This document shows positions 4,265 through 36,018 of a stretch of DNA of 60,673 bases, in pieces. The stretch lies in the NCBI GenBank assembly GCA_964607485.1, contig CAZSKP010000029.1:1-60673 (forward strand). Reading direction: 5' to 3'. The notes under the pieces were generated by a model. That model did no database searches, was not told where the DNA came from, and was given only the letters and a program-made list of their open reading frames with translations. Within the stretch, counting starts at the first letter, position 1. The number at the start of each line of letters is the position of its first letter. The DNA comes from an uncultured bacterium. Its GTDB lineage: Bacteria > Abyssobacteria > SURF-5. The translations under genes and the position numbers were made by a program.

Positions 4265-4278
4265 GAGGAACCGCCGCG

Positions 4279-10406: not shown

Positions 10407-10919
10407 TCAGGCGGTCACGGAGAGCAGGCGGGAATTGTTGGCGAGTTGCCTTAGGGTGGAGTGCCGGGACCCATTGCCGTTTCCGTCGTCGCGACTGTTG
10501 GCGGGGGCTGCGTCGGCCAATGCCTTCTCGAAGTCGATCTCGGCCCATGCCGACCGCAGGTTTTGAAGGATATCGAGCACGTTGTCGAGTAGGCGCATCT
10601 CCTTGGTGAAGTTCACCTCAATCAATCGTCCGATCATGTACACGTACAGACGCTGCAGATTCTTTGCGACTTCTCCTCCCTCCTCCATTTTCAGGATCCG
10701 GAGCAGCTCGGTTACGATGTCGCGGGCCCTCACGATCGACTTGTAGCTTCTAACGTAGTCTTTCTGTTCAATCGAATCCTTGGCTTCGGAGGCGAACTTA
10801 ATTGCTCCGTCGTAGAGCATGAGTATGAGGTCTTTTTGACTGAGGCCGTTGATGTGTTCCTCCCGGTAGCACTTTGCCGCCTTCGCGGAAACTATATCGC
10901 CCTTGCGCTCCTCGACCAT
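10407..10919 (-). CDS. fliS: Flagellin export chaperone FliS
   Basis: LILMLYDGAIKF, GGEVAKNLQRLYVYM, LRSAW. Confidence 0.94.
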   Translation of the reverse strand: MVEERKGDIVSAKAAKCYREEHINGLSQKDLILMLYDGAIKFASEAKDSIEQKDYVRSYKSIVRARDIVTELLRILKMEEGGEVAKNLQRLYVYMIGRLIEVNFTKEMRLLDNVLDILQNLRSAWAEIDFEKALADAAPANSRDDGNGNGSRHSTLRQLANNSRLLSVTA

Positions 10920-10944: not shown

Positions 10945-13257
10945 TTAGCCGTTATTCCTTCTCGTGAGCGTGTTTGTCAGAGGCAGGTTCTGAAGCTGTT
11001 GTATGAGAAAATCACCTTGCGAGGTGAGTGATGCCAACGAGGCCTCCAGCCGTGCGAAATCCGAGAGCAGCGATTGTCTCTTCTCTTCAAGCCGCTCATT
11101 CATACTTTCGATGTCAGAGTCGAGATCGTCTATCTGACGCGTGAGCGTGTCCGTCCGAGTGGTTACACGTCCATCGACGGGGTGTGTCAGGAAGCCTAGC
11201 TGGTCATTCAGGCGCGCACCGAGGCCGTCGATGACGGTCACCACGCCTTCGGACTCAGAGGAGTTCACCTCCGATGGGGTCAGCGTCACGAGAAGCGCCA
11301 GGCCGTCGGTCGTCGCGTTGCCCGCGTTTCCCGTGAGAGTCTGTCCGCTGCCTGTCGCGGGTTCTCCGTTGATTGTCCCGGCCACGTCCTGGCCCGAGGT
11401 GGCGACCGCTGCCGTAAGACCCAGCGTTGCGAACGCGCTGTTTTCGGGCTCAGAGCCCAACTGGACCGATGACGAGGACCCGTAACTGGATGATGTGAAG
11501 AGCAGCCGCCCGCCGGAGAATTCGACCGAGACATGTTTTCCGGCGAGTTGTGGGTCGGCGCTCAACTGTGCCTGTAATGCGGCCGCCAAGTCGTCGCCCG
11601 TGTTGTAAGTCTGCGCTGACAACGTCAGCACAGAACTCTCCTGGCCGTCCACCCTCAGGCGTATCTGGTTGTCGCTGGTAGTGAGTGTTATCGGAAAGCT
11701 GCCTAAAGCAGCGCCCTCAAGCGTGCCTCCCGTGGCGGCGGTAGTGATGTCGACCGCGAACCCGGAACTACTCAAGATGGTCTTGTCGCTCGAGGTAAGA
11801 TACGTGATATCTGGGTTTGTCGTTGTGAAGCTCGTGGAGAAGAGGTCCGCGACCCCCTCCAGGTTCGCCGCGAGCGCTCCATCGAGTTTCGCGTCGTTGA
11901 TGACGAGCTTTCCGGTCTCGGCGACCGATGTTACGCCGATGGCCGCGAGGCGGTTCATGTCCGTGGGCAAGCCGGGGACAACGCCGGTCGCTATTCGCCT
12001 CATATCGTTCTGCACGCTCATCAGCAGCGAGTCGCCGAGCAGCAGGCCTCCTTCTTGCGTAACGGGGTCATACCGAAGCTGCTCGTTCAGAAAATCGATG
12101 ACTTGGTTGTACGATTCGACGAATCCCTCTATCGCCCCCCGCACGTCCTCGGTGTCGTTTGAGACGGAAATCCTCACTGACGTAGCCGCGTCCGCCCCCA
12201 GGAGGTTCAGCGTGACCCCGGGAACGACGCCAGTGACCGTGTTCGTGGCGGACTTTATCGTGATGGGCGCTCCGCCGCCGGAACTGCTGCCCAGGGTGAG
12301 AGAGGCGTCCTGCGCCGCCTGTGTGGTCGGGACGAACGTGTCTATCCTGAAACGATCTCCGGCGGTGAGCGTGCCGCTGTCGGTGAACGCGATGGACACC
12401 CCGTCCTCCAGAAGCGTTCCGCCGGTGGCGGTCAGGAATCCGGCTCCGCCGTTGTCGTCGAACGTCAGGCCGCCGTCGGTCGAGAAGCGGAACGTGGCTG
12501 CGCCGACCGCGCCGTCCGACATTATCTCCACGATGAACGTCTGGTTTTCGGCTCCCGTGTATGTCCCCAGGGATGAGGCGGTGCCGGTGTAGGAGGAGCT
12601 GTTGCTCGCGTCCGCCTCAGCCGCGTCGATGTTGTTGTTGACAAAATCGGGCGCCTTTCCGCCCGTGAGGCTGACCGTCACATCTACCGTGTTTGCAGCG
12701 CCCGTGACCGTGCTGGTCAATAGCAGCCGGTAAGGGTTCGAGGCACTGCCGTCGTTAACGATGGCTGCCGTGACATCTGCGCCTGAACTGTTGATCGCGT
12801 CTCTCAGACCAGCCAGTGTGTTGTTTCCTGCGTCGATTTCTATCTCAGTAGTTGCTCCCGAGCCGACCCGGATGGTAACCGTGCCGACGCCAATGCTCGT
12901 CGTGTCCGTATCCGCGAAGCCCTGTGAGGCCAACTGGTGAGCCTGTGCAAGCTGGTTGACCCTAATAAAGTGAGTGCCGGGGGCCGCATTGCCGGTGACG
13001 GAAGCCGATAGGAGGGACTCGTGGCTGGAGGTGACAGTCTGTGTCTGGAAATTCTTCTGTTTGGATAGAGTCGTCGCCGAAGCCTTAAGACCGAGGAGAA
13101 GCCCGTTGAAGCTCTGTATGGCCGTCAGCTTCGCGGTCTCATCGGTCTTTTTCGTCGACACAAGGTCTATTCGGCGCTGCTCCGCAGCGACTATGGTGTC
13201 TATGATAGACTGCCAGTCGATTCCCGAGTATATTCCAGAAAAATATATGTCACCCAT
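10945..13257 (-). CDS. fliD: Flagellar filament cap protein (long, 770 aa)
   Basis: FSGIYSGIDWQSIID N-terminus, VNQLAQAHQLAS, AQDA, VPGVTLNL, FVESYN, C-terminal coiled coil ending FARLEA. Confidence 0.95.
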   Translation of the reverse strand: MGDIYFSGIYSGIDWQSIIDTIVAAEQRRIDLVSTKKTDETAKLTAIQSFNGLLLGLKASATTLSKQKNFQTQTVTSSHESLLSASVTGNAAPGTHFIRVNQLAQAHQLASQGFADTDTTSIGVGTVTIRVGSGATTEIEIDAGNNTLAGLRDAINSSGADVTAAIVNDGSASNPYRLLLTSTVTGAANTVDVTVSLTGGKAPDFVNNNIDAAEADASNSSSYTGTASSLGTYTGAENQTFIVEIMSDGAVGAATFRFSTDGGLTFDDNGGAGFLTATGGTLLEDGVSIAFTDSGTLTAGDRFRIDTFVPTTQAAQDASLTLGSSSGGGAPITIKSATNTVTGVVPGVTLNLLGADAATSVRISVSNDTEDVRGAIEGFVESYNQVIDFLNEQLRYDPVTQEGGLLLGDSLLMSVQNDMRRIATGVVPGLPTDMNRLAAIGVTSVAETGKLVINDAKLDGALAANLEGVADLFSTSFTTTNPDITYLTSSDKTILSSSGFAVDITTAATGGTLEGAALGSFPITLTTSDNQIRLRVDGQESSVLTLSAQTYNTGDDLAAALQAQLSADPQLAGKHVSVEFSGGRLLFTSSSYGSSSSVQLGSEPENSAFATLGLTAAVATSGQDVAGTINGEPATGSGQTLTGNAGNATTDGLALLVTLTPSEVNSSESEGVVTVIDGLGARLNDQLGFLTHPVDGRVTTRTDTLTRQIDDLDSDIESMNERLEEKRQSLLSDFARLEASLASLTSQGDFLIQQLQNLPLTNTLTRRNNG

Positions 13258-13275: not shown

Positions 13276-13662
13276 TCATCCGCTTTCGTCAAGGAGGATA
13301 CCGACAATGTTGCGTATCTTCGCGTAAACGTCCAGCAGCTCTTGGGGAGGAATCTGACGAATGACTTCACCGTGTTCGTCGAGCACCTGAACCGCCGACC
13401 GTCCGCTGGCCTCGTCGTGAATGAAGTTGAGGCTGCTTCCGATTTCGCTCAGGTACTTGTTGATTCCGTCAAGAGTGCTCTCCATCTCAGCAGCGTCCAT
13501 TTCAACAGCATCCGCCCCAGCGAGCGTTTGCGGCGCAACGGACGCAAACTGAGATGTCGCTGGCGGGCTGCTTCCAACTCGACGGGCAGTACTGACACCG
13601 GACGTAGTTCCAGCAGCCGGGTCAAGGCCTGGGTAGCCTGCCTGATCAACTCTGATGCCCAT
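13276..13662 (-). CDS. flaG: Flagellar protein FlaG
   Basis: VQVLDEHGEVIRQIPPQE...VGILLD; between fliC and fliD. Confidence 0.92.
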   Translation of the reverse strand: MGIRVDQAGYPGLDPAAGTTSGVSTARRVGSSPPATSQFASVAPQTLAGADAVEMDAAEMESTLDGINKYLSEIGSSLNFIHDEASGRSAVQVLDEHGEVIRQIPPQELLDVYAKIRNIVGILLDESG

Positions 13663-13743: not shown

Positions 13744-15534
13744 TTACCCCAGCAACTGAAGCACCGTCTGCGGAATTGCATTCGCCTGCGCCAATACTGA
13801 GACACCCGCTGATAGGAGTATCTGGTTCCTTGTGAATTCGCTTACTTCCGACGAGATGTCCACGTCTCTGATCGTGCTCTCAGAAGCGGACAGGTTCTCC
13901 TCGGCGATTCTGAGTGAGCGCAGATTCGTCTCCAGCGTATTCTTCTGGAACGCGCCCAGTCTTGCGCGCAGCCTGGAAATCTCGTCGGTCCCCTGGTCTA
14001 TCAGCAGGACGGCGTCGTTTGCGCCCTGCACCGTGGTGATGTCGAGGTCTTCCAGACTGGTGAAGTTGCTCTTGTTGACTATGCCCCGCGCGAGCTTGTC
14101 GGCCGAGATATCCTGAGCGGATATCCTGACGACCTGGTTCGGATTCGGTCCGACCTGGAACTGAATCGAGTTGTCAACGACCGAAATCGTGGCGGAGCTG
14201 TCCGTCGCCGGAACGTTGAAGAACCCGAAGCTGATATCCAATGTTCCGATCGCGTTGCCCTGCGAGTCCTGGCCGGCGCTGAGTGTCTTGGTTTCACCCG
14301 AGGTGACGGCCATTTTGGGACCCGCGCCGAGCTGCACGTCGAACGTGGCCGGAGTGACTTCCACGTTCAGAGTCTCGCCGTCTATGAGGTTCTGCGTGGT
14401 GAACGCTACCTCAAACGTAAGTGTGAGCGAGGCTCCGCTGGCGTCGCTGACCACGAACTCCGTCGTGCCCGAAGCGAGCCTAAGGATGTCACCGTCGTCG
14501 AGCTGAACACCGACGTTCTGGCCGTTGGCGGCGGTCACCGTAGCGGCGGCGAACCCATACTCCTGGGCAGTCGCTGCGTCCGCGAATGTGATGGTGATAG
14601 TCTGTGCCGCCCCGACCGCCGTGTTGTTGCTGTCGATGGCGATCGAGTACGTGCCGTCGCCGTTGTTGACCGCGATGAATTGGTCGTTGTTCACCAGGTC
14701 GCGGGCCTCGGCGTTTATCTCAGCCACGATGTTAGCGACGGTGTTAGCTTCGTCGCCCTCGAAGACCACCGTGCTCGTGCCCGAGGCCGATGCGAGGGTG
14801 ATAGTCGTCGCCGTGAGTGTGCTGTTCCCGTCGAGTACCGCCGAGGTGGACGAAGTCGCATAGGCGCCCGTGGCTTCAGTCACCACAAGCGAGTGCGAGC
14901 CTCCCGCCAGTCCGTCGGGGTCTCCGTCGGCGCCTGTGCCTGCCAGCGCCACATTGTCAAGCAGGTCGAACGGATCGGAAGTGATCGTCGCGCCTGCCTG
15001 AGTTATGTTGCTGACGTTTATGGTGTAGGTGCCGGTGCGGAGGGTGCTCTCGGCAAGATTCGTCAGGCCGATCGTGTTCAGGCTCGTCAGGCTGACCACG
15101 TTCTCGAACGTGCCGTCCAGCAAGGTCTGGATGCTGAACTGTGCGGTGTCAGAGATACGGGTTATCGTCTGAAGAGCGTTGGAGAGTTCCGCCTGGTCCG
15201 CCGCGAGCGATGTCGCGTTGTTGATGCCGGAATTGGCTGCGTCGAGAGCCAGTTCCCGCATGCTGATCAGCAGCGAGTTCACCTCGTTCAGACTACCCTC
15301 AATCGTCTGCACGAGGTTGACCGCCCGCTCGGAATTCACGATTGCCGCGTTCAGACCGGCAATCTGCGCCCTGAGCTGTTCCGATATGGCCAGACCAGCA
15401 GGGTCGTCGCCCGCAGTGTTGATCCGCAGGCCTGAGGACAACCTCTGCACCGACTTGAACAGCCTGGCATCGGCCAGCGTCAGGTTCCTTTGGGCGGTTA
15501 TCGCCGTGACATTGGTGTTGATGCGTAAACCCAT
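13744..15534 (-). CDS. fliC: Flagellin (596 aa, Ser/Thr-rich variable region)
   Basis: RINTN, RLSSGLRIN..DDPAGLAIS, FQVGPN, RARLGAFQ, ESTIRDVD, VLAQAN..LQLL. Confidence 0.97.
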   Translation of the reverse strand: MGLRINTNVTAITAQRNLTLADARLFKSVQRLSSGLRINTAGDDPAGLAISEQLRAQIAGLNAAIVNSERAVNLVQTIEGSLNEVNSLLISMRELALDAANSGINNATSLAADQAELSNALQTITRISDTAQFSIQTLLDGTFENVVSLTSLNTIGLTNLAESTLRTGTYTINVSNITQAGATITSDPFDLLDNVALAGTGADGDPDGLAGGSHSLVVTEATGAYATSSTSAVLDGNSTLTATTITLASASGTSTVVFEGDEANTVANIVAEINAEARDLVNNDQFIAVNNGDGTYSIAIDSNNTAVGAAQTITITFADAATAQEYGFAAATVTAANGQNVGVQLDDGDILRLASGTTEFVVSDASGASLTLTFEVAFTTQNLIDGETLNVEVTPATFDVQLGAGPKMAVTSGETKTLSAGQDSQGNAIGTLDISFGFFNVPATDSSATISVVDNSIQFQVGPNPNQVVRISAQDISADKLARGIVNKSNFTSLEDLDITTVQGANDAVLLIDQGTDEISRLRARLGAFQKNTLETNLRSLRIAEENLSASESTIRDVDISSEVSEFTRNQILLSAGVSVLAQANAIPQTVLQLLG

Positions 15535-15773: not shown

Positions 15774-15800
15774 ATATCGGCACGATGGGCGAAATCTTTA
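15774..15800 (-). promoter_or_regulatory. sigma28 (FliA/SigD) promoter of fliC
   Basis: Minus strand TAAA-N15-GCCGATAT, matching the consensus. Confidence 0.9.
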
Positions 15801-15927: not shown

Positions 15928-16731
15928 TCACCAGTCAGGCTCTGTCGCGTAGTTCAGATCCACCAGCAGGTCTCCCGCGACATCCTTGACGACTTGCTTG
16001 TCCGCGGGGTTCAAGTCCTTTTTCCAACGACCGACCGAGGCGGCGTATAGGGGCTTGGACACCTGAGCGGCGCTGGATTCGCCCGCGAGGTTGCGTTCCC
16101 GCCGATGAAACTCGAGCACTGCCGGGTCCCAAGGTTCTTTGATGAAGGCGAAGAGTTTGCGAAGAGTCTCTTCCGGCTGGCCGACGATGTCCTCGTAGCG
16201 CAGTTCCATGTACCGGGGGGCGAGCGAGGGGCCCCGCGCGGCTTTCCGGCCCGTCTGAACCGCCGAAACCCAGTATTCCGCTGCCTTGCGGGCATCACGG
16301 GTGTACTCGATCGGCTGGCCCGTCTGTGGATTCACCCAGTTCATGGTGAGTAGCGAGCAGACGACGTCTCGTCCGTCGCGAATCACGTGAATCAAGGGGC
16401 TCTCGGGGAAAATATGGTGCAAATGTTGAAAAAAGAAGACGTTATTCGGAGATTTCTCGGCGATGCGCGGCTTGCCCGCCTGCAGCCGATACTTCTCCAG
16501 CAACGATGTAATCATCTGCCCGAAAATCTGGTTGATATCCGCCGGTGTCAGGAGGTACTCCCTAAGGGGCGGAAGGTGCGCAGTCTGAAAGCTGTGCCAA
16601 AGCCCGGCGAGGATCGGGGTCACCTTGAGTTCCGGGCCGCATGCGATGTTCGGATGCGAATCGAGGATCACGCGTATCAGCGTTGTGCCCGACCGGCCTG
16701 CGCCTCCGATGAAAATAGGCGAACTCGTCAC
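15928..16731 (-). CDS. PAPS-dependent sulfotransferase, tyrosylprotein-sulfotransferase (TPST)-like
   Basis: PIFIGGAGRSGTTL (5'-PSB loop), LDSHP, EKSP, RDGRDVVCS (3'-PB), RYEDIV, QVSKPLY..SVGRWK. Confidence 0.9.
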   Translation of the reverse strand: MTSSPIFIGGAGRSGTTLIRVILDSHPNIACGPELKVTPILAGLWHSFQTAHLPPLREYLLTPADINQIFGQMITSLLEKYRLQAGKPRIAEKSPNNVFFFQHLHHIFPESPLIHVIRDGRDVVCSLLTMNWVNPQTGQPIEYTRDARKAAEYWVSAVQTGRKAARGPSLAPRYMELRYEDIVGQPEETLRKLFAFIKEPWDPAVLEFHRRERNLAGESSAAQVSKPLYAASVGRWKKDLNPADKQVVKDVAGDLLVDLNYATEPDW

Positions 16732-16791
16732 AACAAATTCTCCCTCATGACAAATAATCCGGTTCCTCGGCCATCGGCGATGTCATGAGAA

Positions 16792-16820
16792 AAGATACTA
16801 GGATATGGATTCATTGTCAA
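16792..16820 (-). promoter_or_regulatory. sigma70-type promoter for the sulfotransferase
   Basis: Minus strand TTGACA-N17-TATCTT. Confidence 0.6.
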
Positions 16821-16858
16821 GTGTAGTGCGCCCATCGAGGGAAATCTCACACAGAAGT

Positions 16859-16886
16859 TAAAGTTAACGTTCAGTTCTGCCGATAA
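16859..16886 (+). promoter_or_regulatory. Probable sigma28 promoter of the MerR-TPR-glycosyltransferase operon
   Basis: TAAA-N16-GCCGATAA, 70 bp upstream of the MerR ORF; spacer is 1 nt longer than at fliC. Confidence 0.7.
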
Positions 16887-16955
16887 AAGACGTGATGCTG
16901 ACGGAGAGCCCGGAGTTTCTCCGTACCTTTTCCGACTTCGAAGAGAAAAACTCAG

Positions 16956-17387
16956 ATGCTTGAACGGGCGGAAAAAATGACTTGCGAAAGAGAAGGAAAC
17001 GGCGATGGCAGGTTGATGTCCATACGCGAGGTGAGTGCGCTCACGGGGGTGCCGCCCCATACGTTGAGGTTCTGGGAGAAGGAGATGCCCGACATCCTCT
17101 GCCCGCTGAGGACACCGGGTGGACAGAGGCGTTACGACTCGGAAATGGCCGACCGCGTGCGCGTGATAAAGCGCCTTTCGGAAGGCCGGGGACGCTCGCT
17201 TGCGGCGATTCGCGAACGACTCGGCTGCGCGCAGCAGCCATCACGGCCGCGACAGGATCTCCGCAACAGCCTGCACGCCGAACGCATCCTTGAACTTATA
17301 GTAGATGAAATCGCCGGTATTCTCAAAGAAAGGTTGTTTCCTCTTCTCGATGCCGGCGAGCTCACGGAACGCGAGGGAAGCGAATGA
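16956..17387 (+). CDS. MerR-family HTH transcriptional regulator
   Basis: SIREVSALTGVPPHTLRFWEKE...RTPGGQRRY; the true start may be a downstream Met. Confidence 0.9.
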   Translation: MLERAEKMTCEREGNGDGRLMSIREVSALTGVPPHTLRFWEKEMPDILCPLRTPGGQRRYDSEMADRVRVIKRLSEGRGRSLAAIRERLGCAQQPSRPRQDLRNSLHAERILELIVDEIAGILKERLFPLLDAGELTEREGSE

Positions 17388-18121
17388 AAACGAGCGAACG
17401 TTTTTCTGACCCGAATCCCCCGGCCGAACCCGATGTGCGGACAGTAACTCAGCATGATGCTCAGTGCGCGCGAGAATATTGCGACCTTGCCGGGATGATG
17501 CTCGCCGAGGGTGACACCGAGGGCGCGATTGAAAATTACCAGAGAGCGCTCCTGCACGAAAAAGAAGAACCCGGCATCCACAACAATCTGGGCGCGGCCT
17601 TGTTTGCCGCAGGACGGTTCGCCGATGCGGAGTGGCACTTCCGCACGGCCCTGGCGCTGAGACGCGACTATCCGGATGCGATTCACAACCTGGCAATGCT
17701 CTGTCTCCGGCGAGGAGAAGCGGAGGGGGCGAAGGCGCTGTTCAGGCAATTGATAGAAATCGGAGCGGACTGCGCCGACGCTTATAACACTCTCGGCGCG
17801 GTCGCGTGGGCTGAGACGCGCATCGAGGAGGCAATCGGCCTTTTCAAGCGGGCGCTCGAAATCGACCCCGGCCATAAGGAAGCCCTGCCGAATTATCTTT
17901 CCGCCGCGTTTGCGCTCGAACTGTACGAGCCCGTCGAATCTCTGCTCCAGTGTTACGTTGAGGCGCACCCCGACAACTCGGATTTGACGTACCAGCTTGC
18001 CTATTGTCGATTCAGGCTCGGCCGCCCAAAGCAGGCGCAGGCACTGTTGCAAGCGCTGTTGGCCGCCGACCCCGACAATGAGGACGCCAGAGAACTCCTT
18101 GCGCAGTGTGAGGCGGCATGA
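17384..18121 (+). CDS. Tetratricopeptide repeat protein
   Basis: Several TPR units (HNNLGAAL..G....A...FRTALAL; YNTLG); ATGA overlaps on both sides. Confidence 0.88.
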   Translation: MKTSERFSDPNPPAEPDVRTVTQHDAQCAREYCDLAGMMLAEGDTEGAIENYQRALLHEKEEPGIHNNLGAALFAAGRFADAEWHFRTALALRRDYPDAIHNLAMLCLRRGEAEGAKALFRQLIEIGADCADAYNTLGAVAWAETRIEEAIGLFKRALEIDPGHKEALPNYLSAAFALELYEPVESLLQCYVEAHPDNSDLTYQLAYCRFRLGRPKQAQALLQALLAADPDNEDARELLAQCEAA

Positions 18122-21100
18122 GCAAGAAAAGGCCCAGAAAAAAGGCACGCTCCGCAGGTTCCATCGCGCTCTGCATGATAGTGAGAGACGAGGAGGCAAA
18201 CCTCGGCCGATGCCTTGAGAGCGTGAGCGGGCTTGTGTCTGAAATCGACATCGTTGACACGGGTTCCGGCGACGATACCATTCAGATAGCAAAAAGCCAC
18301 GGCGCAAGGGTTCGGCGGGAAAAATGGGCTGACGATTTTAGTCGCGCTCGAAATGTCTCGCTGCACATGGCGCGCACCGACTGGATACTGGTTCTCGATG
18401 CCGACGAGGTTCTCTCGCCCGAGGGGATTCCCAAGATAAGAGCCGCAGTTCGCAACTCGGATGTCAGCGCATATTTGCTTCCCACGCGGAACTACACGAA
18501 TGACCCGACCGTCGCGAATTTCGTCCCCAACGACGGCAGCTTCGGGCCTGCGCTCGATTGTGAGGGATGGGTCGAATCCCGAAAGATTCGTCTCTTCAGG
18601 AAGCTTCCCGGCATACGATTTGAAGGAGAGGTGCACGAAGCTGTCGGGCCGGCTATTCGGCACTGCGGAGGACGGGAGGAATTTCTCGACGCCGTCGTTC
18701 ATCACTTCGGCTACTTGGCGTCGGAGGATTCCCTGCGAAGGAAGACCGAAAGAATCGCTTCCCTCGCCGAGGCGAAATGCGCCAGCCAGCCTGACAATTA
18801 CCAGGCGCACTACGAACTCGGCGTCATCTCGGCCCGTCTTGGGAATCTTGAGAAGGCCGAAAGATGCCTCAGAGAGGCCGTCGCCCTCCGAACAGATTTC
18901 GCGATTGCGCACTATGACCTTGGGGTCGTCCTGTCGAAGGCCGGGAGGGATGAAGAAGCGGTCTTCGAATACCAGGCGGCTCTCAAATTCGACCCGAACA
19001 GCTCCGACGCACTGAACAACCTTGCGGATGCGCTGCAGCGTCTCCGTCGCTATGAAGAGGCCGAGCGAGCATATGGAGCGCTGCTTGTAAGGCATCCATC
19101 GCATAAGAGAGGCTGGAGCAATCTTGGGACGCTCTTGGCGTCAACCGGCAGGCAGGCCGAGGCCGAGCAGGCATTCAAGAATGCTCTTCGCATTGACCCG
19201 AATTTCTCCGACGCGCTGCAGAATCTTCGTATCCTCTCGGCCGCTTCGCCCGATTCACCTACACTGTGTCTTCTCATGATCGTGCGAAATGAGCGGCAGA
19301 ACTTGAGCGAGACGCTTCCCCAAGTCGCGCGGTGTTTCGACGAAATTGTCATTGTTGACACGGGGTCCGAAGACGACACCATGGAGGTCGCAAAGAAATT
19401 CACGGAAAAGACATTTGCCTTCCCTTGGACGGACGATTTTTCGGCGGCCAGGAACTTCGCCCTGACAAAAGCACGGGCGGACTGGATTCTCTGGCTCGAC
19501 GCCGACGACCGGATGACTCCCCGAGATGTGACCCTGCTGAAACGGCATATCTCGGGAGATAGGAAAGGTTACCTGATACGGGTTGTGTCGGATTCCAGCG
19601 GTTCCGGCACGGCGCAATTTCTGCAGCTTCGGCTGTTCCCGAACGTCGAGGGAATAAGATGGGAGGGACGCGTTCACGAACAGGTGCTGCCGTCGCTCCA
19701 ACGTAAGGGATTGGGTGTCGAAGCCGTACCAGACGTGACAGTCGTCCACAAGGGCTATGACGACCCCGCCACATTGAAAGAGAAAACGATACGCAACCTG
19801 CGCCTGCTGGAGGAGGAACGCAGGCTCAGGCCCGACGACCCACACGTGTTGCAGCACATCGCACAGGCGTACGCTCTGCTGGGCGATATCGACAAGGCCG
19901 TCGAGGCTTCAGAGGCGCTCGTCGATGCCCCTGCTTCGCAAGCGCGTGATGCGTTCCTGACTCACACCCTGAATCGGCTCATACAGTACAACCTCCTGTT
20001 GAACAACGTCAAAAGAGCGAAACACTGGGCCGACCGGGTGCTTCAGACCGACCCGCAGGACCGACTCGTGAGGTTCTTCCTCGGAGAAATTTGCTATCAG
20101 GAAGGCTCGCTCGTTGAAGCCATCGGTTGGTTTGAGCGGTTCTGCGAGGCGGAAGAAGTTGTCGGCTGCGCCCCGGTTCCGTGGCGGACGCTCACTGCGA
20201 ATGCGCGCAATTATCTCGGGCTCGCCTATGAGCGAATCGGGAGGCGCGACAAAGCCCGCTCGGAGTTTCGCGCGGCGATAGAGCTTGGAGCCCGGCTGGA
20301 GGCTTATAAGAATCTGGCGCGCATGCATCTGGAAGACGGCGACCCCGCAGGAGCGGCGTCGGTCCTGCAGGCTGCGACAAAGCTCGAGGGTGGTGATGCC
20401 GGGGTCTGGACAAACCTCGGTGTTGCGATGGCCCGATCCGGCAAGTTCGATGAGGCTGCAGAATCGCTTCGCAAGGCGCTCGAGATCGAACCGGCCAACG
20501 CGGCGGCAAAGCAAAATCTGACCAAGCTCGAAGGCATGGCCGGCCATGCTCCTTCCCTGGCGAAATCTTTCACGCTCAGCACGTGCATAATTGCAAAAAA
20601 TGAGGCGGCGAGCCTGCGAGACGCCGTCGAGTCCGTCGCGCCTGTCTCCGACGAGGTCATCGTCGTGGATACCGGCTCTACGGATGACACCGTCGAAGTG
20701 GCCCGAAGCTGCGGCGCGGTAGTGAAGACGATGGAATGGGCGGACGACTTCTCCGCGGCGCGCAATGTATCGTTAGGCTTCGCAAGCTGTGAGTGGATAC
20801 TGGTAATCGACGCCGACGAGGTCGTTGCGGCAGAGGATTTGCGGAAGCTGGCCCGACTCGGGCCGGAACCGAACGTGTGGGGTTATTCGATGGTGACGCG
20901 CAACTACTCGTCCGACCGGCATGTCATCGGCTGGCAGCGCGCTGACTCTTCCGATGAACTTGCCCGCGGGCAGCCGGGCTGGTTCCCCTCCACCAAGGTG
21001 AGATTGTTCAGGAATAATCCGAAAATCCGATTTGAGGGTCGCGTACACGAATGCGTGGAGCCCTCGATACTCAAGGCGGGCAAACGAATTGAACGTCTCG

Positions 21101-22695
21101 ACGTGCCGGTTCATCATTACGGTTGCATTCGCGACGACGGAGAGAAGCGACACTACTACCTGGAGCTGGCCGAGATGAAGGCGCGCGAAAATGTGCGGGA
21201 CTCACGCGCCAATTACGAACTCGGCATACAGTGCATGGTCGCCGGAAAGCTCGAAGAAGCCGAAATTGCGCTCGCGAAGGCGGTTGAACTCGACCCGCAC
21301 AACGAGGCTGCTCTCATCAACATGGGCGGCGTGAGGATTAAGCTTGGCAAGCTCTCTGAAGCCGCAGGCCTTTTGGAAAGGGCTGTGGCTCTCAATCCGA
21401 ATTCCGGCTGCGCGCACTACAACCTGGGGGTTGCACTCGAAAAGATGGGTCGTTTCGACGAGGCCGAGGTGAGATATTCGAAGGCACACGCGTTGGACCA
21501 GGACGACGCGAATGCACTCGCGAAGCTCGGCTACCTGTGCGCCAGGAAGGGTGACATGCAAGCGGCGCGTGAGCGTCTGGAGCGGGCACTCGCGCTTGAC
21601 CCGCAAAATCAGCATGCGCGGAACAACCTGGAATATGTCCGAACGAAACTCCCCGGATTGCCCCTCGCTCGGTGCGACCTCAGTCTGAACATGATCGTCA
21701 GAGACGAGGAGGATAATCTGAAGGAGGGCCTGGCGCCGGTCGCGGCGTTGTTTGACGAGATAGTCGTTGTGGACACCGGCTCGAGCGACGGCACCGTCGA
21801 GGCGGCCGAGCGGCTTGGCGCGCGGGTCATTCATCATCCGTGGAACGACGATTTCGCCGAGGCAAGAAATGTGGCGCTCAAGAACAGCAGGGGGAGTTGG
21901 ATCTTCTGGCTTGATGCGGATGACAGAATCGAGCCGCGTGCGGTGAACACGCTCCGCAAGTTCATCGCGAGGGGAATTCCGTGCGGCGCGTTCTTCCCGC
22001 TTGAGTCCGCGCTGGGGGATAACGGGTCGGTCGTTCAGAACTACACGCTCCGGCTTTTCCCCAACAGGCCCGGCATCGCCTGGGCGGGGGCCGTTCACGA
22101 GCAGATAGCGGGCAGCCTCCGCGCCTCCGGCATCGAGCTGGTCAACTGTCCCGATTTCAAGATTCGCCATGTCGGCTACGAAAAGAGGGGAGAGGCCCTG
22201 AGGAAGAACCTCCGCAACCTGAACCTGCTTGCAAAGGAGATCGTCGCAAGACCCGAAGATCCGTACATCATGTTCGCTCTGGCGCAGGCGTTCCTCTTCT
22301 GCGGACAGGTCCAACACGCCGCCAGATGGCTTCGCCTCCTGTGGAACATGCGGGGGAAAGCGGACGGGGCAGCGTGGAAAGAGGTCTTCTGGATGGCTGC
22401 CATAGTGCTCTCCGATTGTGCCGCGAGGTCGGGCGATGCGGCGGAGGCGGAACAATGGCTCGAACACGCCATCGAGCTTGTTCCGGATAATTGGCTGGCG
22501 CATTTCCTGCTCGGAGAGAAGAAATTTCTGGGAGGAGACCTCGCGCGAGCCTCTCATCTGATAGGCGAGGCCGCGCGGATAGGGGTGAGTCCGACAATTC
22601 TGCCCCTGGACCTGGATCAAATGCGCGGAAAACTTGAAAGGTATCTGTCGAAGCTGAAGGAGGTGGAGGCTTCGACCGCCTTGGGAAGAGTCTAG
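18118..22695 (+). CDS. 1525-aa multidomain glycosyltransferase: four GT2 domains interleaved with TPR arrays
   Basis: Four copies of xMIV(R/K)(D/N)E...VDTGS.D.T...W.DDF..ARN...W...DAD(E/D)...G.VHE starting near 18163, 19261, 20572 and 21678, each followed by TPR or helical repeats. Confidence 0.92.
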   Translation: MSKKRPRKKARSAGSIALCMIVRDEEANLGRCLESVSGLVSEIDIVDTGSGDDTIQIAKSHGARVRREKWADDFSRARNVSLHMARTDWILVLDADEVLSPEGIPKIRAAVRNSDVSAYLLPTRNYTNDPTVANFVPNDGSFGPALDCEGWVESRKIRLFRKLPGIRFEGEVHEAVGPAIRHCGGREEFLDAVVHHFGYLASEDSLRRKTERIASLAEAKCASQPDNYQAHYELGVISARLGNLEKAERCLREAVALRTDFAIAHYDLGVVLSKAGRDEEAVFEYQAALKFDPNSSDALNNLADALQRLRRYEEAERAYGALLVRHPSHKRGWSNLGTLLASTGRQAEAEQAFKNALRIDPNFSDALQNLRILSAASPDSPTLCLLMIVRNERQNLSETLPQVARCFDEIVIVDTGSEDDTMEVAKKFTEKTFAFPWTDDFSAARNFALTKARADWILWLDADDRMTPRDVTLLKRHISGDRKGYLIRVVSDSSGSGTAQFLQLRLFPNVEGIRWEGRVHEQVLPSLQRKGLGVEAVPDVTVVHKGYDDPATLKEKTIRNLRLLEEERRLRPDDPHVLQHIAQAYALLGDIDKAVEASEALVDAPASQARDAFLTHTLNRLIQYNLLLNNVKRAKHWADRVLQTDPQDRLVRFFLGEICYQEGSLVEAIGWFERFCEAEEVVGCAPVPWRTLTANARNYLGLAYERIGRRDKARSEFRAAIELGARLEAYKNLARMHLEDGDPAGAASVLQAATKLEGGDAGVWTNLGVAMARSGKFDEAAESLRKALEIEPANAAAKQNLTKLEGMAGHAPSLAKSFTLSTCIIAKNEAASLRDAVESVAPVSDEVIVVDTGSTDDTVEVARSCGAVVKTMEWADDFSAARNVSLGFASCEWILVIDADEVVAAEDLRKLARLGPEPNVWGYSMVTRNYSSDRHVIGWQRADSSDELARGQPGWFPSTKVRLFRNNPKIRFEGRVHECVEPSILKAGKRIERLDVPVHHYGCIRDDGEKRHYYLELAEMKARENVRDSRANYELGIQCMVAGKLEEAEIALAKAVELDPHNEAALINMGGVRIKLGKLSEAAGLLERAVALNPNSGCAHYNLGVALEKMGRFDEAEVRYSKAHALDQDDANALAKLGYLCARKGDMQAARERLERALALDPQNQHARNNLEYVRTKLPGLPLARCDLSLNMIVRDEEDNLKEGLAPVAALFDEIVVVDTGSSDGTVEAAERLGARVIHHPWNDDFAEARNVALKNSRGSWIFWLDADDRIEPRAVNTLRKFIARGIPCGAFFPLESALGDNGSVVQNYTLRLFPNRPGIAWAGAVHEQIAGSLRASGIELVNCPDFKIRHVGYEKRGEALRKNLRNLNLLAKEIVARPEDPYIMFALAQAFLFCGQVQHAARWLRLLWNMRGKADGAAWKEVFWMAAIVLSDCAARSGDAAEAEQWLEHAIELVPDNWLAHFLLGEKKFLGGDLARASHLIGEAARIGVSPTILPLDLDQMRGKLERYLSKLKEVEASTALGRV

Positions 22696-22701
22696 ACGAA
22701 A

Positions 22702-24024
22702 ATGAACAAGGACAAGAGAATCAGCCTCTGCATGATCGTGCGGGATGAGGAAGACTTCCTGCCGGATTGTCTGAACAGTGTGCTTGGGGCAGTCGATGAG
22801 ATAGTCGTGGTGGACACGGGCTCGACCGATTCGACTCTCCTGATTGCGGCCGAGTTTGGTGCGCGCGTCTTCTCGTTCGAGTGGACCGACAGCTTCAGCG
22901 AGGCCCGCAATCATGCGCTGGAAAACGCCTCGGGCGACTGGATACTCGTCCTCGATGCCGACGAGGTCATCGCGCCCAAAGACGCCGCAAAAATACGCGC
23001 GCTGGCCGACGGAAGCGCCGACGGTTACCTGTTCACATATCGCAGCTACTCGCAGAACAGCCACGACATCCGCTGGATGGCCAACGACGGCTCGTACGAG
23101 GAAGGCGACGGCTGGGACGGATGGATTTCCGGCGAGGTCGTCCGCATGTTCAGGCGGGACTCTCGGATCCGTTTCTCGGGGGCGGTGCACGAATCGGTCG
23201 ATCGTTCGATTTTCGGCTCCGGAGGAAAACTTGCCGCGACCGACGTCATAGTTCACCATTTTCACGAGAAGAAGGGGGAGGAGAGGCTCCGAGAGAAACA
23301 GCTCTGCTATCTGCGTTTGTGCGAGAAGAATCTGGGCACCTCTGTGGAAAATGCGAAGACGTATTTCGATATGGGCCTCGTTCACAGGTACATACTCGAC
23401 GACATTCCCCGGGCAATCTCATACCAGGAGCGGGCCGTTGGGCTCGATCCACATTTCGAGGACGCCCGCATGGAGTTGGCGCTTCTGTATCACCTCAGCG
23501 GCAATTCGACCGCCGCCGCCGGGGAACTCGCCGCGCTCCTCAACCGTAACCCGAAGCTTGCGCCCGCGTGGCTGCTGTGTGGTATAATGCTCGAGCGACG
23601 CGGCAAGATCGAGCGGGCGATCGAGTGTTATGAGCGAACGCTCAGGTTGAATCCGAATCTGGTCGACGCGCGCGTGAATCTCGGAACGTTGTGGCTCAGG
23701 AAAGGCGACGGCGCACGCGCGCGCATCGAGTGGGAAGTGGCTCACAGGATGAATCCGTCCAACACCCGCGTGCTGCTCAACCTCGGCGCGCTTGAACTGC
23801 GCGATGGGAATTGCGGCTCGGCCCGGCGTTTTCTCGAAAGCGCGCTGCAACGCTCGCCCGACAATGCTTCCGTCTGGAACAATCTCGGCGTGTTGCATGT
23901 GCGCGCGGGTCGCATGCATGAGGCGCTCGATGCCTTTGAAAAGGCACTTGCGCTCGACCCTTCTTGCGACGATGTCCGCCGTAATGTCGACGCCGTCCGG
24001 GGACGGGCGAACTCATCGCTCTAA
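22702..24024 (+). CDS. GT2 glycosyltransferase with C-terminal TPRs
   Basis: ISLCMIVRDEE, VDTGSTD, ARNHAL, LDADE, GAVHE, then about six TPRs. Confidence 0.92.
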   Translation: MNKDKRISLCMIVRDEEDFLPDCLNSVLGAVDEIVVVDTGSTDSTLLIAAEFGARVFSFEWTDSFSEARNHALENASGDWILVLDADEVIAPKDAAKIRALADGSADGYLFTYRSYSQNSHDIRWMANDGSYEEGDGWDGWISGEVVRMFRRDSRIRFSGAVHESVDRSIFGSGGKLAATDVIVHHFHEKKGEERLREKQLCYLRLCEKNLGTSVENAKTYFDMGLVHRYILDDIPRAISYQERAVGLDPHFEDARMELALLYHLSGNSTAAAGELAALLNRNPKLAPAWLLCGIMLERRGKIERAIECYERTLRLNPNLVDARVNLGTLWLRKGDGARARIEWEVAHRMNPSNTRVLLNLGALELRDGNCGSARRFLESALQRSPDNASVWNNLGVLHVRAGRMHEALDAFEKALALDPSCDDVRRNVDAVRGRANSSL

Positions 24025-24052
24025 ACTTCCGTCCTCATCACCGTGGCAAACG

Positions 24053-25189
24053 ATGGCCATACGTGCCGACAAGAATAAATCGGCTGCGCAACTGGACGGG
24101 CCTCGCGTCCTGCGCCCAGAGGAACGTCGCTCGGCCTTAGACCTCATCAACTCGGCCCTCCGTCCGAACGGTCCATCCACGATTCTCAAGGAATATCCGC
24201 TGGTCCTGGGTAAGGGCAACCTCCACAACATGCGCGTCGTCGTTAAAGGAAGAGAGGTGCTTTCGCACGCGGCGCTCTATTTCTCAAAATTGCGGTCGAG
24301 GGACATCGTGTTCGACGTCGGTGGAGTCGGGTCGGTAGCGACGCACCCAGAATATCGGGGCCGCGGCCTGGCCAGCGCCGTGATCAGGGACTGTGTCAGT
24401 ATTATGAAGGAATCCCATTGTCACCTCTCGGTTCTCTGGACACAGAGACACGATTTCTATAGAAAGCTCGGGTACGAAGCCGCGGGCTCCGAGTATCTGT
24501 TCCGGGCGAGAGCGTCGGATTTCGCCCACGTCTCACGCGACTGCAAAGTTGTTCCCTATTCGCGCCGCCGACTGTCGGCCATAATCGAAATACACGAGCG
24601 CGAAACCCTGCGCACGGAGCGGACGAGGAAACAATACGAGACCTATCTCGGGATTCCGAAAACAAAAACTCTGCTCGCCATGCGAGGGAACGCCGTCACC
24701 GCGTATGCCGTCATGGGCAAGGGCGAGGATTTCGGCAACTGCATTCATGAATGGGGCGGCAACGCAGGAGACCTGCTCTCTCTTGTGCGCGAGTTTACCT
24801 CGTCGTCCAGCTCTGGCGAAATCATGATTCTTGCACCGGCGCAAGAGAATGAGTTCACCCGTCTCCTCCGGCGAATGCGACTGACGGAGATGTTCGAATA
24901 TCTGGCGATGATGAGGATAATCGACCTAGAGAGCCTTTCGTCCCTCCTACATAACTGTCTGAGCCCCCGGCTTGGAGGGGAATTTCGAGTGTGGCGGAGC
25001 GCGTCGGGATTGATGATGAAGGCCGGAGCGGAGGAAGCGAAGGTCGAGCAGGAACAGAAACTCGTGCGAGTTCTGTTCGGGCCGGAGCCGGCCTCAAGCC
25101 TGCTTGGCGGATTTTCGCCTCAAACCCTTCGAGCGCTCGACGGCGCGCTGCCGATTCCGTTGTTCATCTGGGGACTCGACTCGGTCTGA
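24053..25189 (+). CDS. GNAT-family N-acyltransferase (Eis-like, tandem GNAT)
   Basis: VGSVATHPEYRGRGLAS motif A, FYRKLGY, C-terminal FIWGLDSV; start reassigned to MAIRAD (the longer ORF overlaps the upstream gene). Confidence 0.85.
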   Translation: MAIRADKNKSAAQLDGPRVLRPEERRSALDLINSALRPNGPSTILKEYPLVLGKGNLHNMRVVVKGREVLSHAALYFSKLRSRDIVFDVGGVGSVATHPEYRGRGLASAVIRDCVSIMKESHCHLSVLWTQRHDFYRKLGYEAAGSEYLFRARASDFAHVSRDCKVVPYSRRRLSAIIEIHERETLRTERTRKQYETYLGIPKTKTLLAMRGNAVTAYAVMGKGEDFGNCIHEWGGNAGDLLSLVREFTSSSSSGEIMILAPAQENEFTRLLRRMRLTEMFEYLAMMRIIDLESLSSLLHNCLSPRLGGEFRVWRSASGLMMKAGAEEAKVEQEQKLVRVLFGPEPASSLLGGFSPQTLRALDGALPIPLFIWGLDSV

Positions 25190-26134: not shown

Positions 26135-26189
26135 CTAACCACCCGCCAAGCGTTGTGGTCAATCACCTCAAAGAGAATCGGGAGGAATC

Positions 26190-27344
26190 GTGGGAAAAAG
26201 ACATCCCATCTTCACAGAAGAGCACCAGATGCTCCGCCGCTCGGTCAGAAGTTTCGTCGAGAAAGAACTTGCCCCGCACGCGGACCAATGGGAGAAACAG
26301 GGCGGCTTTCCCCATCGGGAGGTATTCAAGCGGCTGGGAGAACTCGGCTTCCTCGGCATCGACATCCCGGAGGAATACGGGGGTTCGGACGCCGGCTTCG
26401 TCGCCACCGTCGTCTTCGCCGAGGAGATTGCCCGGTGCAACTCGAGCGGTGTCGGCGCATCCATCGGTCTGCACGCGAACATCGCGCTCCCGTACATCGC
26501 CGACCTGGGAACCGAGGAGCAGAAACAGAAATACCTGGCGCCGGGGGTAAGGGGAGAGCTCATCGGCTCCCTGGGCGTGACCGAGCCGGGCGCAGGTTCC
26601 GATGTCGCCTCGATCAGAACCAATGCCGTCCGAGACGGCGACAGCTACGTCATCAACGGCAGCAAGATGTTCATCACCAACGGTGGAATCGCGGATTACG
26701 TCATCCTCGCCACGAAGACCGAGAAAGAGAAGGGTCACGAGGGAATCAGCATGTTCCTCGTCGACAGGGGCGCGCCCGGCTTTACGGTCAGCCGCGACCT
26801 CGACAAGCTCGGGTGGCGTTCGTGCAACACCGCGGAACTCGCGTTCGAGGACGTCCGCGTTCCCGTGAGCGCGATGCTCGGAGATGAAGGGCAGGGGTTT
26901 TATAACATAATGATTCATTTTCAGGAGGAGCGGCTCTATATGGGTGTCGGCGCCGTGTGCGAGGCCCAGCGAGCGCTTGACCTCGCCCTTGAGTACTCGA
27001 AGGAGCGCGTTCAGTTCGGCCGGCCGATAGCCAAATTTCAGGTCACCCGTCACAAGATAGCCGACATGGCGACCGAGATCGAGGCTGCGAGACAGCTCGT
27101 CTACAACACCATCCGGATGCACATCGAGGAGGAGCCCTGCCAGGTGGAAGTCGCCATGTGCAAATTGTTCGCCTGCGAAATGGCCAACCGGGTAATAAAT
27201 CAGGCGCTCCAGATTTTCGGCGGCTACGGCTACATGATGGAATACCCGATACAGCGCCTGTGGCGCGACTCGCGCATAGGCACTATCGGCGGTGGTACCT
27301 CGGAGATACAACGCGAAATCATCGGCCGGTTGCTCCTGCAATGA
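26190..27344 (+). CDS. Acyl-CoA dehydrogenase
   Basis: TEPGAGSDVA, INGSKMFITNG, RVQFGRPI, QIFGGYGY, IGGGTSEIQR. Confidence 0.96.
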   Translation: MGKRHPIFTEEHQMLRRSVRSFVEKELAPHADQWEKQGGFPHREVFKRLGELGFLGIDIPEEYGGSDAGFVATVVFAEEIARCNSSGVGASIGLHANIALPYIADLGTEEQKQKYLAPGVRGELIGSLGVTEPGAGSDVASIRTNAVRDGDSYVINGSKMFITNGGIADYVILATKTEKEKGHEGISMFLVDRGAPGFTVSRDLDKLGWRSCNTAELAFEDVRVPVSAMLGDEGQGFYNIMIHFQEERLYMGVGAVCEAQRALDLALEYSKERVQFGRPIAKFQVTRHKIADMATEIEAARQLVYNTIRMHIEEEPCQVEVAMCKLFACEMANRVINQALQIFGGYGYMMEYPIQRLWRDSRIGTIGGGTSEIQREIIGRLLLQ

Positions 27345-27412
27345 GGAGCGGACAGAAGATCCCTTTTGCCTGGGTCTGCTGCCTTGCCGCCAGCTGAGTT
27401 GAGGAGGAGGAG

Positions 27413-28207
27413 ATGACCGTCGATTACGTGAAGAAGGATAGGATCGCATACATCACGCTCAACCGGCCCGAGGCGCGCAATGCGCTCGACCCCGACACAC
27501 TCGAGGCTCTCGGCAGGACGTGGATCGATTTTCGCGACGACCCGTCCGTGTTGGTTGCGATAATCACCGGAGTCGGCAACTCGTTCTGCGCGGGCGCCGA
27601 CTTGGGCACCCTCATTCCGCGCATCACGAGCTCACCCGAGGGCCTGACCGGTCTCATAAAAGGCGAGATGGCCGACATCTTTCAGTCTGCCCTTCTTCGC
27701 GACATCGACATATGGAAGCCCATAGTGGCGGCGGTCAACGGCTACTGCATCGCCGGAGGGCTGGAGATGCTACTTGGCATGGACATCCGCATCGCCTCGG
27801 AGAGCGCCTTCTTCGCCATTCAGGAACCCAGATGGGGATTGTTCCCGGCGGGAGGCTCGACGGTCCGGCTTCCGCGCCAGGTGCCTTTCTGCAAGGCGAT
27901 GGAAATTCTCCTGACCGGCGAAAAAATAGACGCGCAAGAGGCGCGCCGCATCGGGCTTGTCAACTACGTCGTCCCCCAAGAAGAGCTGATGCCCACAGCC
28001 GAGAAGTTTGCGCGGCGCATAGCCGACAACGGCCCGCTGGCCGTGAGCGCTATAAAGAGGTCGGTCATCGAATCACTGAGCCTCTCGCTGCCGAAGGCGT
28101 ACGAGCGCGAGATAGAGCTCGCGACCCCCGTGTTCAAGTCGGAGGACGCCATCGAGGGCCCGATGGCGTTCATGCAGAAGCGCAAACCGGAATTCAAGGG
28201 CAAGTAG
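27413..28207 (+). CDS. Enoyl-CoA hydratase/isomerase (crotonase family)
   Basis: LNRPEARNAL, FCAGADL, KPIVAAVNGYCIAGGLE, KRKPEFKG. Confidence 0.95.
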   Translation: MTVDYVKKDRIAYITLNRPEARNALDPDTLEALGRTWIDFRDDPSVLVAIITGVGNSFCAGADLGTLIPRITSSPEGLTGLIKGEMADIFQSALLRDIDIWKPIVAAVNGYCIAGGLEMLLGMDIRIASESAFFAIQEPRWGLFPAGGSTVRLPRQVPFCKAMEILLTGEKIDAQEARRIGLVNYVVPQEELMPTAEKFARRIADNGPLAVSAIKRSVIESLSLSLPKAYEREIELATPVFKSEDAIEGPMAFMQKRKPEFKGK

Positions 28208-36014: not shown

Positions 36015-36018
36015 AGGT

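Follow-up and report, generated by a model that had tools for sequence, protein, structure and literature searches.

The 60,673-nucleotide contig CAZSKP010000029.1 of an uncultured SURF-5 bacterium from sediment (Abyssobacteria), called the window below, is contig C29 of a 4.7-Mb metagenome-assembled genome with a completeness of 97.5%. Beside its flagellin gene, fliC, lies a candidate flagellin-modification island. The island consists of a sulfotransferase gene and an operon of five plus-strand genes, running from a MerR-family regulator to a GNAT acetyltransferase; the operon is divergent from fliC, and the sulfotransferase gene sits between the two. The third operon gene encodes a 1525-aa protein of four modules, each a family 2 glycosyltransferase (GT2) domain with tetratricopeptide repeats (TPRs). 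The genes of the island and the neighbouring flagellar genes are:

10407..10919, minus strand: fliS, flagellin export chaperone (TIGR00208 3.8e-27, over its cut-off)
10945..13257, minus strand: fliD, filament cap, 770 aa (FliD_N 3.5e-23, FliD_C 1.5e-43)
13276..13662, minus strand: flaG (PF03646 6.5e-18)
13744..15534, minus strand: fliC, 596-aa flagellin whose central domain is large, the presumed acceptor (Flagellin_N 2.3e-29, Flagellin_C 4.2e-19)
15928..16731, minus strand: sulfotransferase of the 3'-phosphoadenosine-5'-phosphosulfate (PAPS) type, 267 aa, without TPRs (PF13469 6.7e-35)
16956..17387, plus strand: MerR-family regulator, 143 aa, first gene of the operon (MerR_1 5.6e-19)
17384..18121, plus strand: free TPR protein, 245 aa (Pfam TPR families)
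18118..22695, plus strand: 1525-aa protein with four GT2-TPR modules (Glycos_transf_2 1.1e-80 in four stretches alternating with TPR blocks)
22702..24024, plus strand: solo type A GT2-TPR protein, 440 aa (Glycos_transf_2 5.3e-25; GmaR 2.9e-27)
24053..25189, plus strand: GNAT acetyltransferase, 378 aa (Acetyltransf_9, PF13527, 1.7e-17, residues 19-144)

The initial annotation of this locus had read the same order of operon genes beside fliC and a sulfotransferase divergent from them, and our hidden Markov model (HMM) domain scan confirmed both, the latter at 15928-16731 on the minus strand. Two ATGA overlaps (17384-17387 and 18118-18121) couple the MerR, TPR and 1525-aa genes, as had also been noted. 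Further along the operon, gaps of 6 nt and 28 nt separate the 1525-aa gene from the solo glycosyltransferase (GT) gene and the solo GT gene from the GNAT gene. We place the start of the GNAT gene at ATG 24053, not at TTG 23792 of the mechanical open reading frame (ORF); orthologs align from the first residues of the ATG version.

The 1525-aa protein divides into modules of two types, A and B, whose phylogenetic clades are described further below:

18118..19251, plus strand: module 1, residues 1-378, type A GT2 and about five TPRs, clade A1 (SunS 1.7e-19, GmaR 3.8e-19; well folded in the AlphaFold2 model)
19252..20553, plus strand: module 2, residues 379-812, type B GT2 and a long TPR arm, clade B-internal (GmaR 2.4e-27)
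20554..21663, plus strand: module 3, residues 813-1182, type A GT2 and TPRs, clade A3 (motifs and tree)
21664..22695, plus strand: module 4, residues 1183-1525, type B GT2 and a short helical tail, clade B-terminal (motifs and tree)

All five GT2 domains retain the DTGS, DAD and VHE motifs that had been ascribed to them. We verified DTGS at residues 47, 414, 851 and 1219 of the 1525-aa protein (38 in the solo GT), DAD at 94, 461, 898 and 1266 (85 in the solo GT), and VHE at 172, 519, 976 and 1326 (162 in the solo GT). In 14 two-module units from 10 genomes, the stretches DTGS-D, W-DDF-ARN, DAD(D/E), HE and H-GY are invariant in both GT domains; because every motif residue is invariant in this alignment, all modules appear to be constrained and catalytically competent. 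In every module, Pfam TPR families mark a TPR region immediately C-terminal to the GT domain.

Against solved structures, GmaR (PDB 22ao) scores 2.9e-27 with the solo GT, 3.8e-19 with module 1 and 2.4e-27 with module 2; homology to GmaR was scored for these three, and modules 3 and 4 are assigned through the module HMM and the alignment. SunS scores 1e-17 to 1e-20 for the GT domains, ThuS scores more weakly, and the first unrelated solved match after these enzymes is a chondroitin synthase at 7e-6. We ran AlphaFold2 on modules 1-2 (818 residues, with the alignment of the 14 two-module units). The model has a mean predicted local distance difference test score of 88.0 and contains two GT-A domains, each followed by a helical-repeat arm (residues 203-375 and 550-815); its predicted template modelling (TM) score of 0.54 corresponds to well-folded modules whose mutual arrangement the model does not fix. 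The best enzyme match found by Foldseek is SunS (7msp_B, TM 0.71 on the target, root-mean-square deviation 4.6 over 303 columns), with ThuS also matching, and the arms resemble OGT-type TPR superhelices. By homology and predicted fold, the five GT domains are thus protein glycosyltransferases of the GmaR/SunS type.

These results bear on a reading in which the island encodes soluble GT2s for a polysaccharide or a small-molecule glycoside that lie near fliC by chance. GT2 is a very broad family, and neither a donor-synthesis gene nor the acceptor is proven. However, the homology is specifically to GmaR and SunS, which act on proteins, and not to polysaccharide synthases. Family scans found no export or polymerase genes in the island, and 19-residue hydropathy revealed no membrane-like hydrophobic stretches in its proteins; the peak is at most 1.43 in all of them, whereas two membrane proteins of the window, used as controls, reach 2.29 and 2.61. 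The conservation of a sigma-28 promoter, described below, also argues against a chance location, and we give this reading almost no weight. As the initial annotation had stated for the island, we found no nucleotide-sugar synthesis gene among the window ORFs scanned; since the island has none, common nucleotide sugars are the likely donors.

GmaR, the flagellin O-linked N-acetylglucosamine transferase of Listeria monocytogenes, acts on flagellin in the cytoplasm, and docking of its TPRs on flagellin has been proposed (PMC9638930, in the part available). It shares with the island enzymes an N-terminal GT-A GT2 domain, some 180-200 residues long and bearing DTGS, DDFS-ARN, DAD, HE and H-GY motifs, followed by TPRs. 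However, GmaR has a single GT domain, a linker and a MogR-binding antirepressor domain, whereas the island has four plus one modules, and the C-terminal 171 residues of the 1525-aa protein have no similarity to the antirepressor domain at E up to 1. The regulators also differ, being MogR in the GmaR system and a member of the MerR family in the island; a search for the MogR family gave no match, and its positive control also matched in no genome. Having no recognisable antirepressor domain, the island enzymes appear not to be GmaR proper.

The flagellin O-linked N-acetylhexosamine (HexNAc) transferase of Clostridioides difficile, CD0240 (GT1), is presumably also a GT2-TPR protein. Like the island genes, its gene lies beside fliC in a co-transcribed modification cluster with tailoring genes after it, and on type B flagellin a CD0240-like GT1 is followed by enzymes named GT2 and GT3, giving a glycan of HexNAc and two rhamnoses (PMC5207246, in the part available). 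CD0240 differs in having a single module, with later steps left to unrelated enzymes, and is likened here by description, not by sequence. SunS and ThuS (PDB 7msp, 7msn, 7msk) likewise combine a GT-A domain with a helical repeat domain and act directly on a polypeptide, but they modify Cys of a small bacteriocin precursor, whereas FliC has no Cys in any of 7 orthologs. For this reason O-linkage, rather than SunS-type S-linkage, is expected on FliC. The SunS family model, TIGR04195, is the best NCBIfam model, with 257.4 bits summed over the four modules and 67.5 for the solo GT against a cut-off of 350; below this cut-off and with no Cys acceptor, the island enzymes are predicted to fall outside that family. 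In FlmG and Maf, a TPR or other docking part gives a cytoplasmic transferase its specificity for flagellin or for a site, and docking on flagellin is reported for FlmG (PMC7591256) and Maf-1 (PMC13317340), both in the parts available. Their catalytic folds are unrelated, though, and their donors are nonulosonic acids; Pfam finds only GT2 in the island. Overall, with a GmaR-homologous GT-A domain bearing DxD, C-terminal TPRs, and linkage to a flagellin gene with paired sigma-28-like promoters, the modules would belong with the GmaR/CD0240 family.

The 1525-aa protein had first been described as (GT2-TPR)x4. Its modules are not equivalent but alternate between two subfamilies as A-B-A-B, with 38% identity between modules 1 and 3 and between modules 2 and 4, against 28-35% for the remaining pairs. 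Type A (modules 1 and 3 and the solo GT) has some 20 extra residues inserted in the GT domain, which type B, SunS and GmaR lack. In a maximum-likelihood tree of 47 GT domains drawn from 11 genomes, A and B separate with 100/99 support, and the clades are A1 (always first), A3 with its sister A-extra, A-solo, a second solo clade, B-internal, and B-terminal (always last). Because G004, the sole genome of a second family, has members in A1, B-internal, B-terminal and A-solo, these four lineages are older than the families of the phylum. The arrangements found, written so that this genome's solo GT is the A after the plus sign, are:

A-B-A-B + A: this genome and SURF_17
A-A-B-A-B + A: G005
A-B-B + A: G011
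A-A-B + A: G007 and G013
A-B-B + A + A: G004

Relatives within the phylum thus have 3 to 5 modules, with constant outer modules and inner ones (A3, A-extra, B-internal) that vary by genus. The solo GT is the best conserved GT of the island, its orthologs being 58-68% identical within the family and 38% identical in G004. The fused architecture is common: multi-module homologs of 838-2669 aa numbered 2019 among the 8000 candidates scored, and among the 119 homologs listed 97 have three GT domains, 10 four, 3 five and 9 two. The initial annotation knew of no characterised enzyme with four tandem GT2-TPR modules, and our literature searches likewise found none. Nor did they find a published description of multi-module GT2-TPR flagellin enzymes, or of the architecture in the literature on flagella in Abyssubacteria. 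As far as these searches went, the fused multi-module GT2-TPR enzymes are a large and seemingly undescribed class, whose individual modules are of the known GmaR/CD0240 kind.

As the modules represent five old, separately conserved lineages in two subfamilies, we think that they would be non-redundant writers with different sites, different donors or both. The initial annotation had envisaged a modular assembly line that builds a multi-sugar glycan or loads many sites. In a chain-building line, the conserved solo A, the first A or some other module would initiate on Ser/Thr and the rest would extend the sugar, one unit each, to a defined oligosaccharide, which is then sulfated or acetylated. 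The fixed polarity of the modules, with A1 always first and B-terminal always last, fits a line of this kind; subfamilies A and B could be initiator and extender, the SURF_17 island includes GT4 genes, and the extension of HexNAc by two rhamnoses in C. difficile type B is a precedent (PMC5207246, in the part available). However, every module falls in the clade of GmaR and SunS, in which the characterised enzymes attach the first sugar straight to a side chain of a protein, and each has its own protein-docking TPR arm. Moreover, A3, A-extra and B-internal come and go among genera, which would break a strict line. Because all modules belong to a polypeptide-acting clade and have their own arms, and because inner modules are lost without the rest, we favour modules that act in parallel, directly on the protein. 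We put this at slightly under an even chance and regard the chain-building line as possible but rather unlikely, with a mixture of the two taking up the remainder. Of the proposal as first made, the role in flagellin modification is supported, and chain building is one option among others, as module turnover fits parallel writers at least as well.

Three candidate promoters lie between fliC and the operon:

15775..15800, minus strand: sigma-28-like promoter of fliC (TAAA-N14-17-GCCGATA), conserved in relatives
16792..16820, minus strand: weak sigma-70-like promoter candidate for the sulfotransferase gene (TTGACA-17-TATCTT, 10/12 matches)
16859..16885, plus strand: sigma-28-like promoter of the modification operon, before MerR (TAAA-N14-17-GCCGATA)

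The sigma-28-like promoter that had been reported ahead of the operon is therefore present and has a partner before fliC. These are the only 2 matches to the pattern in the 60.7-kb window, where 0.05 would be expected, and none of 100 shuffles reached 2. The genome encodes fliA. The divergent promoter pair recurs in G007, G009, G011 and SURF_17, and the operon-side element is found in 6 of the 9 genomes with upstream DNA (loci include L022, L025, L026 and L123). It also precedes MerR, near letter-for-letter, in G013 (L157), though fliC is not adjacent there. Expression of the operon with the late (sigma-28) flagellar regulon is most likely. Sigma-70-like matches in the region number 5, not above the 3.6 of shuffles; counts in the sigma-70 and terminator scan were no higher than in shuffles, and the scan found no terminator at the operon end.

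To the promoters can be added the distribution of the genes. The multi-module gene occurs in all 11 genomes of the phylum in our collection, and fliC lies on the same contig, less than 12 kb away, in 8 of them (G000, which is this genome, SURF_17, G004, G005, G007, G009, G010 and G011); of the other three, G013 is unlinked and two have contigs too short to tell. Within this genome, the only five full-length family matches (GT domain plus TPRs) are all in the window. A scan of genome contigs gave 10 further loci sharing only TPRs (L028-L037), which were excluded from the linkage counts. Searching metagenomes with a three-module alignment gave 77 loci, most of them single-module relatives. A flagellin gene is present in 14 of 76 GT-domain loci (confirmed by Pfam or tblastn for those checked) and in 10 of 34 when only loci flanked by 8 kb or more are counted, and in 9 of the 14 flagellin-positive loci it is no more than 153 bp away. 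By a rough, uncomputed estimate, about 1% of random 20-kb stretches would hold a flagellin gene. Multi-module arrays adjoin flagellin in the metagenome loci L038, L064 and L090. The proposed role in flagellin modification is thus supported by the homology to GmaR, the conserved sigma-28-type promoter in common with fliC, and the fliC linkage in 8/11 genomes.

Several points weigh against this role. The 11 genomes of the phylum are kin, and their synteny is a sign of conservation, not eleven independent replicates. Upstream of the G013 operon, 5.6 kb encode a histidine kinase, an aldo-keto reductase and a PRC protein, and no fliC; in 3 of the 9 genomes (G004, G005 and G010), the pattern search did not find the operon-side sigma-28 element. 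Of the 34 well-flanked metagenome loci of the family, 24 have no flagellin gene nearby, and the substrate therefore does not follow from family membership by itself. Both three-module metagenome loci, the only two on which the flagellin linkage of that class could be judged, also have no flagellin gene on the available DNA (L039, with hydrogenase genes to its right, and L059). The middle of FliC, which had been called very Ser/Thr-rich, is enriched, but modestly so (22.5% Ser plus Thr in residues 146-505 vs 17.4% in the termini); it contains 81 Ser/Thr, of which 30 are conserved in 7 orthologs. Finally, for this island and for every multi-module relative, the case is built from genes. Two of these loci have further features: the MerR-GT operon of G013 (L157:7300-13407), away from fliC, adjoins an FHA-GAF histidine kinase and keeps its sigma-28-like element, and the three-module GT2-TPR gene of L059 (4743-13903), on a contig with no flagellin in the DNA available, has fliW 2 kb upstream.

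The acceptor might instead be a different product of the late flagellar regulon, or a surface protein outside the flagellum, with the 770-aa FliD and a second flagellin of 286 aa as candidates. The family loci that lie away from flagellin would agree with this, and fliD, flaG and fliS are as near to the operon as fliC. Elsewhere, the genome encodes the 286-aa flagellin, which has no central domain (G000:C3:167223-170615, L002), and a 648-aa protein with Flagellin_N and a weak match to Flagellin_C (G000:C37:27824-31237, L003), possibly a component of the hook-filament junction; no GmaR-like GT gene lies near either of them. Against such an acceptor, the operon is divergent from fliC itself and has the same promoter type, flagellin is the immediate neighbour in 9/14 flagellin-positive metagenome loci, and the characterised relative GmaR modifies flagellin (PMC9638930, in the part available). 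The 286-aa flagellin also offers no exposed central domain. We therefore consider an acceptor other than FliC improbable.

The first two operon genes suggest a regulatory role by analogy with GmaR, which is both a glycosyltransferase and an anti-repressor (PMC9638930, in the part available). The TPR parts, or the free TPR protein, would then bind MerR and couple flagellin availability or glycosylation to transcription. The MerR and TPR genes are translationally coupled to the GT gene, and on an unrelated metagenome contig (L056) a MerR gene also precedes a GmaR-like GT2 gene. MerR orthologs occur in L023, L025, L123, L154 and L157. However, as described above, similarity to the GmaR antirepressor is absent (E up to 1), constraint acts on every catalytic motif, and the MerR and free TPR genes are missing from G007, G010 and G011, which keep the GT genes. 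As three genera do without them, both proteins are probably accessory, and a moonlighting regulator of this kind seems quite improbable.

The sulfotransferase scores 121.7 bits with PF13469, against a cut-off of 27. Its best solved relatives are the protein-tyrosine sulfotransferases (TPSTs), from 3.8e-27 (8w5z) to 9.1e-17, and the next is the CurM sulfotransferase at 1.6e-9. Residues 6-261 align with TPSTs, a likeness to TPST1/2 and the bacterial RaxST; with this nearly full-length alignment and a score over the cut-off, the protein can be classed as a Sulfotransfer_3, TPST-like enzyme. It retains GRSGTT and RDGRD stretches, which we take to be its PAPS-binding motifs, and the genome encodes an adenosine-5'-phosphosulfate kinase for sulfate donor supply. 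Orthologs occupy the same position in three relatives, the genomes G005, G009 and G011 (loci L022, L023 and L025). In contrast to TPSTs, many homologs of the enzyme are fused to GT2-TPR; to our knowledge, no TPST with such a fusion has been described. Among 100 longer homologs (E<=1e-10, 469-2000 aa), 38 are fused to a GmaR-like GT2 by the module HMM, which ties this sulfotransferase subfamily to GT2-TPR enzymes. Most of the fusions have the order GT2-TPR-sulfotransferase and about 785-812 residues, and the closest, at 65% identity, has the order sulfotransferase-GT2-TPR. In the same set of longer homologs (P0125-P0224), P0128 (1849 aa) adds a methyltransferase, and P0151 bears an FHIPEP (FlhA-type) Pfam domain, perhaps through a fusion or because two genes were called as one. 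The unrelated metagenome contig L086 encodes, at 1531-4328 and 15 bp before a GmaR-like GT2 gene, a 796-aa protein in which about 12 TPRs are combined with a C-terminal Sulfotransfer_3 domain (4.5e-42), the docking-arm design of the GT2-TPR modules.

Given that its closest relatives are protein-tyrosine sulfotransferases, the enzyme may place sulfate on the protein rather than on a sugar; the sulfotransferase-GT2 fusions would fit sugar sulfation as well. Y170, Y296 and Y326 of FliC are conserved in 7 genomes with or without the sulfotransferase gene, and no Tyr tracks the gene.

The GNAT acetyltransferase has 388-406-aa GNATs as its best solved relatives (4my0, 2hv2, 2ozg, 2i00 and 3n7z), and Pfam gives no family match beyond residue 147. 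With its N-terminal Acetyltransf_9 domain and matching protein size, it resembles the Eis-like three-domain enzymes. In relatives, it is kept downstream of the solo GT wherever the DNA extends that far. The suggestion that the product is sulfated and/or acylated thus gains ground as regards the genes, with the conserved position of the GNAT and the GT2 fusions of sulfotransferase homologs supporting both as members of the glycosylation system.

Across the phylum, different genes fill the slot between fliC and the GT genes. In G010 (L159:9026-11930), a TylF-type O-methyltransferase and a 638-aa methyltransferase-TPR fusion occupy the place of the sulfotransferase. SURF_17 (L019:1-10648 with L123) has an 11-kb insert between fliC/MerR and the four-module gene, encoding a TPR-GT2, two GT4s, two methyltransferases, a radical SAM/SPASM enzyme, a B12-radical SAM enzyme and an 846-aa TPR protein.

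Further along the window, a 428-aa ORF without a Pfam or NCBIfam family (26163-27449, minus strand) has weak homologs (28-30% identity) downstream of the GNAT gene in L023 and L027 and may be a loosely linked member of the neighbourhood. The stretch 34644-38912 encodes a multi-haem cytochrome that partly resembles hydrazine dehydrogenase (6.2e-24, far under the cut-off), a B12-radical SAM protein similar to the TIGR04072 family of lipid biosynthesis (246.9 bits vs a cut-off of 360), and a FabH-type ketoacyl synthase. At 52570-56370, consecutive genes encode an aminotransferase, a plain GT2 and a PMT_2 (ArnT-like) membrane glycosyltransferase; these form a separate lipid-linked sugar system, unrelated to the flagellin island.

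Taken together, we consider it likely that the locus is a flagellin O-glycosylation island of the GmaR type, with tailoring, in the late flagellar regulon. Sigma-28 would turn on fliC and the operon together, late in flagellar assembly, and five soluble, cytoplasmic GT-A modules, each with a TPR arm, would meet flagellin before its export. The TPR arms would dock on flagellin, and the modules would transfer sugars from common nucleotide-sugar donors to Ser/Thr of the exposed central domain of FliC, with catalysis through the DxD and His-Glu motifs. The PAPS-dependent sulfotransferase would then tailor the product, on a sugar or on a side chain, and the Eis-like N-acetyltransferase would likewise act after glycosylation. 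In this scheme, we infer the acceptor, the donors, the order of action and the contact between TPRs and flagellin.

Earlier work on flagellin glycosylation has dealt with single-module enzymes (GmaR, CD0240, Maf and FlmG). This locus is an intact and well-conserved example of a fused, protein-directed GT2-TPR class, and such soluble, protein-acting enzymes could serve in glyco-engineering. The module tree predicts that each orthologous lineage makes its own mark, and that the outer modules, which are constant, have other roles than the variable ones between them. More speculatively, and with more doubt than confidence on our part, this and several other uncultured lineages may have sulfated flagella written by a modular code. 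Each module lineage would add its own sugar or serve its own sites, a TPST-like enzyme would sulfate the sugar or the protein, and TPR arms would be a common docking device for glycosyl-, methyl- and sulfotransferases, with module turnover varying the filament surface. The sulfotransferase-GT2 fusions do predict sulfated flagellin, which, if true, would bear on the surface charge of the filament, on phage adsorption and on recognition by hosts or grazers.

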